Virus record (IMG/VR): IMGVR_UViG_2718217860_000001
DNA from: a virus
Lineage: Duplodnaviria; Heunggongvirae; Uroviricota; Caudoviricetes
Reading direction: 5' to 3' (one strand)
DNA: 49,063 nucleotides
Positions 45,532 to 46,791 of this stretch are shown here, piece after piece. Within the stretch, counting starts at the first letter, position 1; each line of letters begins with the position of its first letter. The notes beneath the pieces were generated by a model. That model did no database searches, was not told where the DNA came from, and saw only the letters and a list, made by a program, of their open reading frames with translations. The translations under genes were made by a program, and so were the position numbers.

Positions 45532-46791
45532 TCAATTGTTCATAGTGTTTACATCACCGCCAATTGCTTTTAAGACTGAACGCATGAAATATGGTTTTTC
45601 GTCATGTTTTGAGTCTGCTGTTAATATTTCTAAAGTCGGTTTTTTTTCTTCATTTTCTCTAACTATTTTCCATGAAATACATTTTTGATTATTATTTGAA
45701 TCAATTCCAATTACCTGAAGTCTTTCATCTATAATTGGCATTGTATGTATTGGTTTATTGGAGTTGATGCTTGCTTTTCTGAGCCATAGCTCTGATATCC
45801 AAATGAAGCCATAGGCATTTGTTATTTTGGCTCTGTCAGCTGCATAACGCCAAAAAATATATTTATCTGCTTGATCTTCAAATGTTGTATTGATTAAATC
45901 AATTGGATGGAATTGTTTATCATAAAAAATTAATGTTTGAATGTGATAACCGTCCTTTAAAAAAATCGTTTCTGCAAGCTTGGCTGTATAGTCAACTAAC
46001 TCTTCTGTCGAAGTGATATTTTTAGGCTTATCTACCAGTTTTAGACGCTCTTTAATATCTTCAGGAATTATTTTATTATCATATTGTATCATGCTAAATG
46101 ACAATTTGCTTATGGAGTAATCTTTTAATTTTAAATAAGTTATTCTCCTGGCTTCATCAAATAAAGAGTTGAATGATGTTGGCGAAATCACATCGTCACC
46201 CATTGGATTGTTTATTTGTATGCCAAGAGAGTTACAGCAGTTATACATTCTGCCATAGATTATAGCTAAGGCATGTAATAATTCGTAATCTTTTAGCGTA
46301 TTAGCGACCCATCGTCTTTCTGATTTAATAATAGATGATTCAGTTAAATATGAAGGTAATTTCTTTTGTGCAAGTCTGACTAACTTTTTTATACCAATGT
46401 TTAACATACTTTCATTTGTAATAAACTCAATGTCATTTTCTTCAATGTAAGATGAAATAAGAGTAGCCTTTGCCTCGCTATACATTTCTAAATCGCCTTG
46501 TTTTTCTATCGTATTGCGAGAATTTTTAGCCCAAGCCATTAATGGATCATTTTTCCATTTTTCAATAACATTATTGTTATACCAAATGTCATATCCTATA
46601 ATCTGGTTTTTGTTTTTTTGAATAATAAATGTTACTGTTCTTGCGGTTTGGAGGAATTGATTCAAATTCAAGCGGAATAATTCAGGGTCAAAATATGTAT
46701 CAATGCAGCATTTGAGCAAGTGCGATAAATCTTTAAGTCTTCTTTCCCATGGTTTTTTAGTCATAAAACTCTCCATTTTGATAGGTTGCAT
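45532..46791 (-). CDS. hypothetical protein, 419 aa, low-GC accessory gene (function unknown)
   Basis: Long uninterrupted minus-strand ORF in a markedly AT-rich segment between tfa and the att side; Lys/Asn/Ile-rich; no nucleotide-binding or nuclease motif recognised by eye. Confidence 0.55.
   Translation of the reverse strand: MQPIKMESFMTKKPWERRLKDLSHLLKCCIDTYFDPELFRLNLNQFLQTARTVTFIIQKNKNQIIGYDIWYNNNVIEKWKNDPLMAWAKNSRNTIEKQGDLEMYSEAKATLISSYIEENDIEFITNESMLNIGIKKLVRLAQKKLPSYLTESSIIKSERRWVANTLKDYELLHALAIIYGRMYNCCNSLGIQINNPMGDDVISPTSFNSLFDEARRITYLKLKDYSISKLSFSMIQYDNKIIPEDIKERLKLVDKPKNITSTEELVDYTAKLAETIFLKDGYHIQTLIFYDKQFHPIDLINTTFEDQADKYIFWRYAADRAKITNAYGFIWISELWLRKASINSNKPIHTMPIIDERLQVIGIDSNNNQKCISWKIVRENEEKKPTLEILTADSKHDEKPYFMRSVLKAIGGDVNTMNN

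Follow-up and report, generated by a model that had tools for sequence, protein, structure and literature searches.

The lambda gene ea47 as a hairpin-flanked cassette in a prophage at ssrA, and a possible conflict role for its protein family

The 49,063-nucleotide stretch of DNA analysed here, referred to as the window, comes from a tailed virus (Caudoviricetes; IMG/VR virus record IMGVR_UViG_2718217860_000001) and carries on its minus strand, at 45532..46791, an open reading frame (ORF) of 419 aa as counted from the first ATG in the window's ORF list. At the composition of this ORF ~8% of triplets would be stops, and by our own estimate an open run of 419 codons would arise by chance with a probability of ~1e-15. 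Judged by its sequence, the ORF is ea47 of phage lambda (lambdap80, NP_040606), a named, catalogued and already known gene, and not the "unknown" gene for which the first-pass annotation, made without database searches, had taken it. Window positions 45400-47102 are 98.9% identical at the nucleotide level to lambda positions 22554-24256, which contain ea47, and match a prophage of E. coli S6aCHROMc at 100%. The protein is a 99%-identical allele with four amino acid differences from lambda Ea47 (D199N, T267I, Y334N and S381L), and its full-length similarity to lambda Ea47 places it in the Pfam family PF26900 "Phage_lambda_Ea47", which is a precomputed tag on the homologues. It also matches phrog_19262 ("unknown function"; 1.7e-291), with ORF residues 10-419 aligned to profile positions 1-410. 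As a sequence feature the window gene is nothing unusual, since it differs so little from the lambda gene already in the catalogues.

The real start of ea47 is almost certainly the ATG at 46764, because the lambda coding sequence (22686..23918) and RefSeq both start there, the sequence M-x-KKPWERR, which forms the N-terminus of all homologues, begins there, and a Shine-Dalgarno-like GGAG (46771..46774, minus strand, read from the sequence) lies 6 nt upstream. The coding sequence would then occupy 45532..46764 on the minus strand (410 aa and the stop), the 419-aa version being an extension to an upstream in-frame ATG at 46791. Scans of Ea47 against Pfam (a copy without PF26900), NCBIfam and PADLOC gave nothing meaningful, and a vRNAP_dom match at E 0.03 was dismissed as noise. 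Motif searches for Walker A, HNH, PD-(D/E)xK and GIY patterns found none in Ea47, in agreement with the earlier impression that the protein has no recognisable catalytic motif; the signatures of P-loop NTPases and of HNH, PD-(D/E)xK and GIY-YIG nucleases are all absent from it. Homology of Ea47 to housekeeping or structural proteins was checked and none was found.

The carrier of ea47 is a lambdoid prophage integrated at ssrA. Its attR is the 3' end of ssrA (48662..48699, minus strand; the tmRNA, at 48662-49024, was found by ARAGORN and by Rfam tmRNA with 294 bits), and its attL is marked by the partner of this direct repeat, a 38-nt copy of the ssrA 3' end at 1396-1433. These bounding repeats place ea47 1.9 kb inside attR, so that its slot is the equivalent of the lambda b region. 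The left neighbour, convergent with ea47, is the tail fibre assembly gene tfa (44819..45403, plus strand; Caudo_TAP, 4.8e-44). The GC content of ea47 is 0.31, with 0.27 at third codon positions, against 0.50 in the whole window and 0.52 in the 5 kb to the left. Composition and position agree with the earlier description of a low-GC gene lying between tfa and the attachment site in the equivalent of the b region, and mark it as a compositionally foreign accessory gene.

The gene is part of a moron cassette, which measures 1555 bp proper (45453..47007, minus strand), is set off by its composition (GC 0.306 against 0.52 and 0.43 on its two flanks) and is absent from the tfa-dinI interval of phage mEp460, which is homologous in other respects. 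A sigma-70-like candidate promoter, identified by consensus match, precedes ea47 (46816..46843, minus strand), with TTGACA at 46843-46838, a 16-nt spacer and TATCAC at 46821-46816; a promoter scan that demands T at position 6 of the -10 hexamer passes over it. The promoter-like site is identical in lambda, and its counterpart in HK629, 49-79 nt upstream of ea47, carries a promoter annotation. Both edges of the cassette are formed by copies of one 34-nt hairpin. The downstream copy (CCGCAGAACGTTATTTCATACAACGTTTCTGCGG; 45419..45452, minus strand) makes up the left edge, between the stops of ea47 and tfa; the intergenic stretch that holds it has a fold z-score of -3.66, and the hairpin itself a dG of -14.4 kcal/mol. 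The upstream copy (CCGCAGCACGTTCCTGCATACGACGTGTCTGCGG; 47008..47041, minus strand), recognised by predicted fold and by comparison with mEp460, makes up the right edge, 240 nt upstream of the ea47 start codon, and has a 12-14-bp stem with a dG of -16.8 kcal/mol. The two copies are identical at 28 of 34 positions, one difference in the stem is compensatory (C-G to A-U), and the T-run on the ea47 strand is gone from both.

Phage mEp460, which has no ea47, displays the empty site: a tfa-like 3' end is followed by a single hairpin and then TTTTTCTTTTTCGC, a canonical dinI terminator, and then by dinI itself, and the homology to the window picks up again exactly at the hairpin 47008-47041. On this alignment, the latter hairpin is the former stem of the dinI terminator, with its T-run lost. 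Twin hairpins flank the cassette and the empty site in mEp460 has one, so that the 1555 bp between the copies look like DNA inserted at the dinI terminator or brought in by recombination through it. Both hairpin copies are present in lambda, HK629 and strain CFSAN061770; in lambda (NC_001416) they lie at 22573-22606 and 24162-24195. Lambda also retains ~60 nt of the dinI 3' flank, though it has no dinI, and ea31 and ea59 come next. Across this dinI remnant the mismatches between window and lambda rise from 2 in 243 nt to 7 in 95 nt, and the remnant, by this pattern, marks an old recombination junction. By its predicted features the ea47 cassette is a classical moron: consensus and fold predictions give it a promoter of its own and a flanking terminator-type hairpin, its GC content deviates from that of its surroundings, and it is inserted between genes that are adjacent in mEp460. 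The duplicated-terminator anatomy of the insertion, with an extant empty site, is newly described here, and the cassette neatly illustrates terminators as entry points for morons in lambdoid genomes.

Upstream of ea47, and in the same orientation, lies a dinI-like gene (47110..47357, minus strand; Pfam DinI, 9.6e-18), whose reading frame is broken by the loss of 1 bp from the A-run 47316-47318 (AAA instead of the AAAA of intact dinI genes); the 68-aa ORF 47110..47316 is its 3' part. RefSeq flags dinI as frameshifted in the identical strain. The gene is intact in phage Lys8385Vzw, as seen by alignment, and in strain CFSAN061770, where the tfa-ea47-dinI block closes a prophage adjoining prfC. 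The window dinI reads as a pseudogene, which could be either a true one or a homopolymer sequencing error. Two LexA-type boxes stand before it (47371..47418, minus strand; TACTGTTTATTTACACAG and TACTGTCTACAAACGCAGTA), found by pattern search and conserved in Lys8385Vzw; the box at 47401-47416 is a perfect CTGT-N8-ACAG, and the one at 47373-47388 has one mismatch. The first-pass annotation had described an SOS-box-controlled dinI upstream of ea47 with no clear terminator between the two genes. The gene and its boxes are indeed there, although dinI is frameshifted, and the interval contains no canonical intrinsic terminator, only the strong hairpin without a T-run.

This arrangement raises the question of whether ea47 is chiefly SOS-induced by read-through from the LexA-controlled dinI promoter, as had been suggested by the idea that the gene responds to DNA damage. 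The shared orientation, the two boxes and the loss of the T-run from a hairpin that terminates dinI in mEp460 speak for it, and in a Citrobacter prophage a DinI gene also lies less than 1 kb from the ea47 homologue. That DinI gene, however, is located downstream, beyond an oppositely oriented S24-peptidase gene, and therefore cannot drive the homologue. In the window, a pattern search of the stretch between dinI and ea47 (46765-47110) found no LexA box; the cassette has its own promoter-like site, no box covers it, and the nearest boxes lie ~550 nt upstream of it. The hairpin 47008-47041 is still in the path of any transcript from dinI. Of the 121 E. coli genomes that carry ea47, only 32 have the dinI-ea47 junction, and lambda has ea31 and ea59, not dinI, at this place. 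When ORFs around 55 genuine Ea47 loci from different species were clustered, a dinI-like neighbour did not recur. Chiefly SOS-driven expression, which would be compatible with other readings of the protein, is unlikely on this evidence. In the window, transcription would come mainly from the cassette promoter, with some SOS-dependent read-through from the dinI promoter possible because the terminator hairpin has lost its T-run. Of the proposed induction by DNA damage there remains at most a local add-on of this lineage, not a property of ea47. In an uninduced lambda lysogen, the ea47 transcript was elevated at least 2-fold on a microarray (PMC1151598).

The relatives of Ea47 form a large family. 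A word-index search returned 454 of them at full length (~410 aa), and an exhaustive profile search 1311 clusters at 50% identity, 414 of which score below 1e-30. Their hosts include Enterobacteria, Vibrio, Shewanella, Aeromonas, Azoarcus, Methylibium and others. Comparison with the homologues from Shewanella and Pseudoalteromonas gives a pN of 0.24-0.25 and a saturated pS of 0.75-0.79, a clear sign of purifying selection over deep divergence. An alignment of 69 divergent members, reaching down to 23% identity, contains 24 positions conserved in at least 90% of members, seven of which are invariant (Y24, R42, W78, R83, D91, S96 and W152); Q49, K52, N84, K88, G90, R150, E161, D271, H274, K301, E325, W327 and E347 also reach the 90% level. 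Conservation is densest in the first 96 residues, where the signature W-x4-R-N-x-[IV]-[EV]-K-x-G-D-L is found. Scans of the 69 members against Pfam and PADLOC produced no recurrent or consistent family.

Within E. coli the gene is rare (121 of 5426 complete genomes, all copies at least 99% identical), and almost every one of the 121 genomes has an intact copy, contrary to what a decaying gene would show. The exceptions are one broken copy, H90, and a truncated one in phage O276 (MH547045, 19775-20747), which keeps only codons 1-323 at 99.5% identity and is the one clear case of decay among close relatives. The rarity of ea47, the O276 truncation and the fact that a phenotype was never reported would suit a toxin of the selfish or addiction type, or a passenger gene in decay that benefits neither phage nor host. 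Such an account is very improbable given the strong purifying selection, the full-length architecture kept in hundreds of clusters, the 24 highly conserved positions and the lack of a conserved adjacent antitoxin-like gene in the 55 loci.

The same loci provide no partner of any kind. The hypothesis of a partner gene was rejected, as the Ea47 homologue is the only gene they have in common and the next cluster is found in only 7 of 55, in varying positions. The slots differ from host to host: the b region in lambda; the nin region, between P and NinB, in a Cronobacter lambdoid prophage; a position directly after the integrase in a Vibrio parahaemolyticus element, followed by a pair that includes an SMC-like gene; the outer margin of a Mu-like Citrobacter prophage; in Vibrio misgurnus, one unit among the small co-oriented genes of an integron-like array; in Pectobacterium, an island that is bounded by an integrase and also holds AbiTii, FRG, UvrD and Barstar genes; and a place beside an AAA_15/RloB pair in Shewanella. 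One homologue adjoins an IS91-type transposase, and that of Aeromonas is a lone insertion among housekeeping genes. The 148 ORFs within two positions of the homologues include recurrent integrases, resolvases, LmuB, AriA/GajA/PtuA-type ATPases, PLD, DUF4238 and SocA/Panacea proteins, a defence-type content that is suggestive. Sequences 95-100% identical to lambda ea47 also occur on low-coverage contigs, some of ~48.4-48.5 kb, in assemblies of unrelated organisms (Chromatium, Leeuwenhoekiella, Pseudomonas, Neobacillus, Oceanobacillus, Streptomyces, Fusobacterium, Vibrio and Paenibacillus); these almost certainly stem from lambda control DNA that contaminated the public assemblies and do not reflect horizontal transfer.

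The neighbours of ea47 in lambda bear on its autonomy as well. Lambda Ea59 and Ea31 match the PADLOC candidate system PDC-M01 (A, 3.9e-201; B, 5.8e-113), and Ea59 also matches PtuA of Septu (5.4e-184). Because of these matches the lambda b region appears to encode a Septu-like ATPase-plus-HNH pair, that is, defence-type cargo. As ea47, ea31 and ea59 are adjacent and co-oriented in lambda, Ea47 might be conceived as a third component of this module, with no function alone. This possibility is largely refuted and must be regarded as highly improbable: the window and 31 other E. coli genomes have ea47 without ea31 or ea59, the cassette boundary hairpin 47008-47041 divides ea47 from the pair, neither an AAA nor an HNH partner recurs in the 55 loci, and PDC-M01 is defined by two genes only.

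Some distant members are built into larger proteins. In at least six proteins of 575-917 aa, distant Ea47-like modules are followed by a C-terminal SEC-C zinc motif and TPR or TPR-S repeats, and one Ea47-like fusion (P0263) carries an N-terminal DUF5677. A split, two-gene version of the SEC-C/TPR fusions was searched for and not found. A free-standing SEC-C+TPR unit does exist, though not beside Ea47-like genes; on a JGI metagenome contig (53264-66667) such a lone protein of 467 aa stands beside two AAA_15 ATPase genes and a transposase, and one of the two ATPases carries an OLD-like TOPRIM domain. DUF5677, which is fused in P0263 and adjacent to the homologue in Pectobacterium, and a 277-aa ORF of the window described below were considered as possible relatives of Ea47 and rejected (hhalign probability 0.05-0.1%). 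DUF5677 showed no defence activity in the one paper testing it (PMC12632615). The size and autonomy of the Ea47 family, its R-N-x3-K/H motif and the TPR/SEC-C fusions are newly described here.

The AlphaFold model of Ea47, computed from 85 sequences (pLDDT 88, pTM 0.86), consists of an N-terminal four-helix bundle followed by alpha/beta domains. The latter make up the C-terminal two-thirds of the protein (~300 residues), for which no solved structural relative was found; sequence-profile searches of the PDB with two alignments gave nothing significant, and a Foldseek search of BFVD gave only weak matches to uncharacterised phage proteins of ~190 aa. Nearly all invariant polar residues are located in the N-terminal bundle (R42, Q49, K52, R83-N84-x3-K88-x-G-D91 and S96), with R150 and W152 added from a strand adjacent to it; as a group, the invariant Arg, Lys, Asp and Ser residues resemble those of an enzyme. 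About 12 of the top 60 structure matches are HEPN proteins or HEPN-like domains, among them the HEPN/MNT toxins 7ae2 (8.6), 5yep (7.9) and 8xdj (7.4), Csm6 (7.6) and, further, 4nqf, 2hsb and the C-terminal domains of KNTase and LinB. HEPN domains carry the motif R-x4-6-H. Ea47 has R83-N-T-I-E-K88, with Lys at the position of the HEPN His; residue 88 is Lys in 66 of the 69 members (96%) and His in three (P0183, P0213 and P0220), which read ARVTIVHKGDL or ARTQVVHRGDL and all also change N84. This coupled exchange of Lys and His is the best hint in the alignment that the site may be HEPN-derived. The first-pass statement that there is no HEPN motif accordingly holds for Ea47 itself, which has no profile match and whose only R-x4-6-H match, R9..H15, is not conserved, but it does not extend to the three relatives with R-x4-H.

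Taken together, the family suggests, as a tentative reading to which we give somewhat less than even confidence, that Ea47 is a single-protein conflict or defence effector which the prophage expresses and from which the lysogen, not the growth of lambda, profits. In this scheme the conserved N-terminal site would serve as the active centre; it would be a pocket of HEPN descent in which Lys stands where His is usual, and its substrate would most likely be RNA. The C-terminal domains would act as an autoinhibitory sensor that keeps the protein inactive until an infection cue is sensed, and distant relatives would add the SEC-C zinc motif and TPR 'sensor' repeats in cis. The more specific proposal, that the whole family is a widespread, hitherto overlooked single-gene anti-phage system of the abortive-infection type, with a HEPN-derived Lys pocket R-N-x3-K-x-G-D-L gated by a sensor of novel alpha/beta fold, is possible but clearly more doubtful.

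Several observations weigh against the effector reading. Generic four-helix bundles (FAT, vinculin) outscore the HEPN toxins in the structure comparison, the conserved R-x4-6-H of HEPN proteins is not found, its canonical His being missing in 66 of 69 members, neither Ea47 nor any of the 69 has a HEPN match in Pfam even at E = 1, and the motif of Ea47 lies where the predicted helix 74-89 reaches its C-terminus, which is an unusual place. With no profile match, the canonical motif absent from Ea47 and its counterpart at the end of a helix, HEPN membership is not established. The models of PADLOC 2.0 match neither Ea47, for which PADLOC-DB 2.0 returns zero families, nor, consistently, the 69 divergent relatives. 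Defence-type neighbours are a minority of the 148 ORFs, and support for expression in the lysogen comes from a single microarray with a 2-fold threshold. The literature searched gives no function for Ea47 and no experiment that ties it to phage exclusion, nor does it mention PF26900 or an "Ea47-like" protein. Finally, the name 'Ea' denotes a protein made early after lambda infection, which would also fit a role in the lytic cycle.

Such a role would make Ea47 an accessory protein that helps the phage, for example in counter-defence or host takeover, and that would be produced early, upon infection or induction, from the N-antiterminated pL transcript running through att into the b region. Besides the definition of 'Ea' proteins, yeast two-hybrid data link Ea47 to N (in one vector) and to the tail protein U (in two vectors) (PMC3224144). 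The gene is non-essential by CRISPRi (PMC10695390) and serves as a neutral insertion site (PMC11980383; PMC3945230), and dispensability in laboratory hosts is usual for counter-defence genes. In the prophage, however, the b region no longer adjoins pL; the cassette nevertheless has a promoter-like site of its own, and a lysogen transcript has been reported (PMC1151598). Most members of the family are found outside phages (IMG/VR contains 25 viral contigs with an Ea47 relative, 10 of them lambda-like, against 1311 clusters), some as lone chromosomal insertions or in the integron-like array, and TPR-S sensor repeats as fusion partners are characteristic of conflict proteins on the host side. A lytic-cycle role is thus rather unlikely, though it is the least improbable of the alternatives considered, and an effector that serves the lysogen continues to be the reading that we prefer.

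Several other features of the window lie outside the cassette. Between dinI and ssrA, a minus-strand ORF of 277 aa (47651-48484) matches phrog_8766 (unknown function; 4.6e-62), weakly resembles part of the sequence of phage DNA polymerase families (E 0.003) and has no match in Pfam, PADLOC or NCBIfam. Right after it, a tRNA-like 3' fragment (GGAGGTTCAAATCCTCTCGTGCCA; T-arm and acceptor end, ~47592-47640, minus strand) is accompanied by a terminator-like hairpin (47583-47566). Neither ARAGORN nor Rfam reports a tRNA at this place; the fragment may be a relic attachment site, and a search for its att partner to the left of the lambda-type integrase found no repeat longer than 9 nt. At the other end of the window, a second tyrosine integrase (4-1272) is located beyond the copy of the ssrA 3' end that marks attL (1396-1433), which indicates tandem integrative elements at ssrA. 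The cargo that follows consists of a D12-class adenine methyltransferase (1504-2400), an ORF (2483-3925) that encodes no more of an AAA_15/AAA_21 ATPase than its C-terminal part, and a DDE transposase (4209-5186), after which comes the lambda-type integrase (5474-6637); the segment 1504-5186 may be a defence module disrupted by an insertion sequence. A perfect CTGT-N8-ACAG LexA-type box (CTGTAAAAATAAACAG, 19191-19206) is found at the extreme 5' end of an ORF for an N6/N4 DNA methylase (19181-20233), and a terminator-like element (AACCCGCCGCTGAGCGGGTTTTTT) occurs in two near-identical copies, 18004-18027 and 18681-18704, 677 bp apart. The 3' part of tfa (45300-45360, plus strand) gives a partial match to Rfam IS009 (RF02111; 56 bits, E 2e-11), which is below the gathering score of 117 and is clipped by the edge of the searched stretch. 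The side tail fibre gene stf (41445-44819, 1124 aa) contains a long Ala/Ser/Thr-rich low-complexity segment at approximately residues 110-480, with a GC content of up to 0.61-0.63 and spurious long ORFs in other frames.

With its 410 residues, Ea47 is among the last sizeable lambda proteins without an assigned function. It is not an oddity of lambda: the family has more than 1300 clusters and no partner gene, and it hops among cargo slots of prophages, islands and integron-like arrays. If the more specific reading as an anti-phage system were true, the best-studied temperate phage would have carried an uncharacterised immunity gene for 70 years, beside a second candidate system, Ea59/Ea31.

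Compared with known systems, the closest counterpart of the window gene is lambda ea47 itself, which has the same length of 410 aa, the same promoter region and flanking hairpins and the same position after tfa. The two differ upstream, where the window has the frameshifted dinI and the 277-aa ORF beside ssrA and lambda has ea31 and ea59 beside attP. Ea59/Ea31 (PDC-M01) are the neighbours of ea47 in the lambda b region, but their sequences are unrelated to Ea47, their genes are absent from the window and a cassette boundary lies between them and ea47. With HEPN abortive-infection and toxin proteins (7ae2, 5yep, 8xdj, Csm6 and the AbiD/F/J type) Ea47 shares an invariant Arg, an Asn and a conserved residue five positions on, and, like HEPN toxins, it is stand-alone and borne on mobile elements; unlike them, it has Lys in place of the catalytic His in 96% of members, no profile match and ~300 extra residues. 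The concept of TPR-S conflict proteins (Pfam PF20308) is reportedly due to Kaur, Burroughs, Iyer and Aravind (2020). Distant Ea47-like modules fill the N-terminal slot of proteins that end in SEC-C and TPR or TPR-S, whereas lambda Ea47 has neither TPR nor SEC-C and the Ea47-like fusions have no NTPase domain. Morons, for their part, are said to have been defined by Hendrix and colleagues, with lambda lom and bor and the morons of HK97 and HK022 as examples. The ea47 cassette resembles lambdoid morons in its promoter-like site, its terminator-type hairpin, its deviant GC content, its position between genes adjacent in mEp460 and, according to the literature, its transcript in the lysogen. Its gene (1.2 kb) is larger than that of most morons, and it differs from them in having copies of one hairpin on both flanks, an arrangement suggesting that the terminator itself was the site of insertion or recombination.

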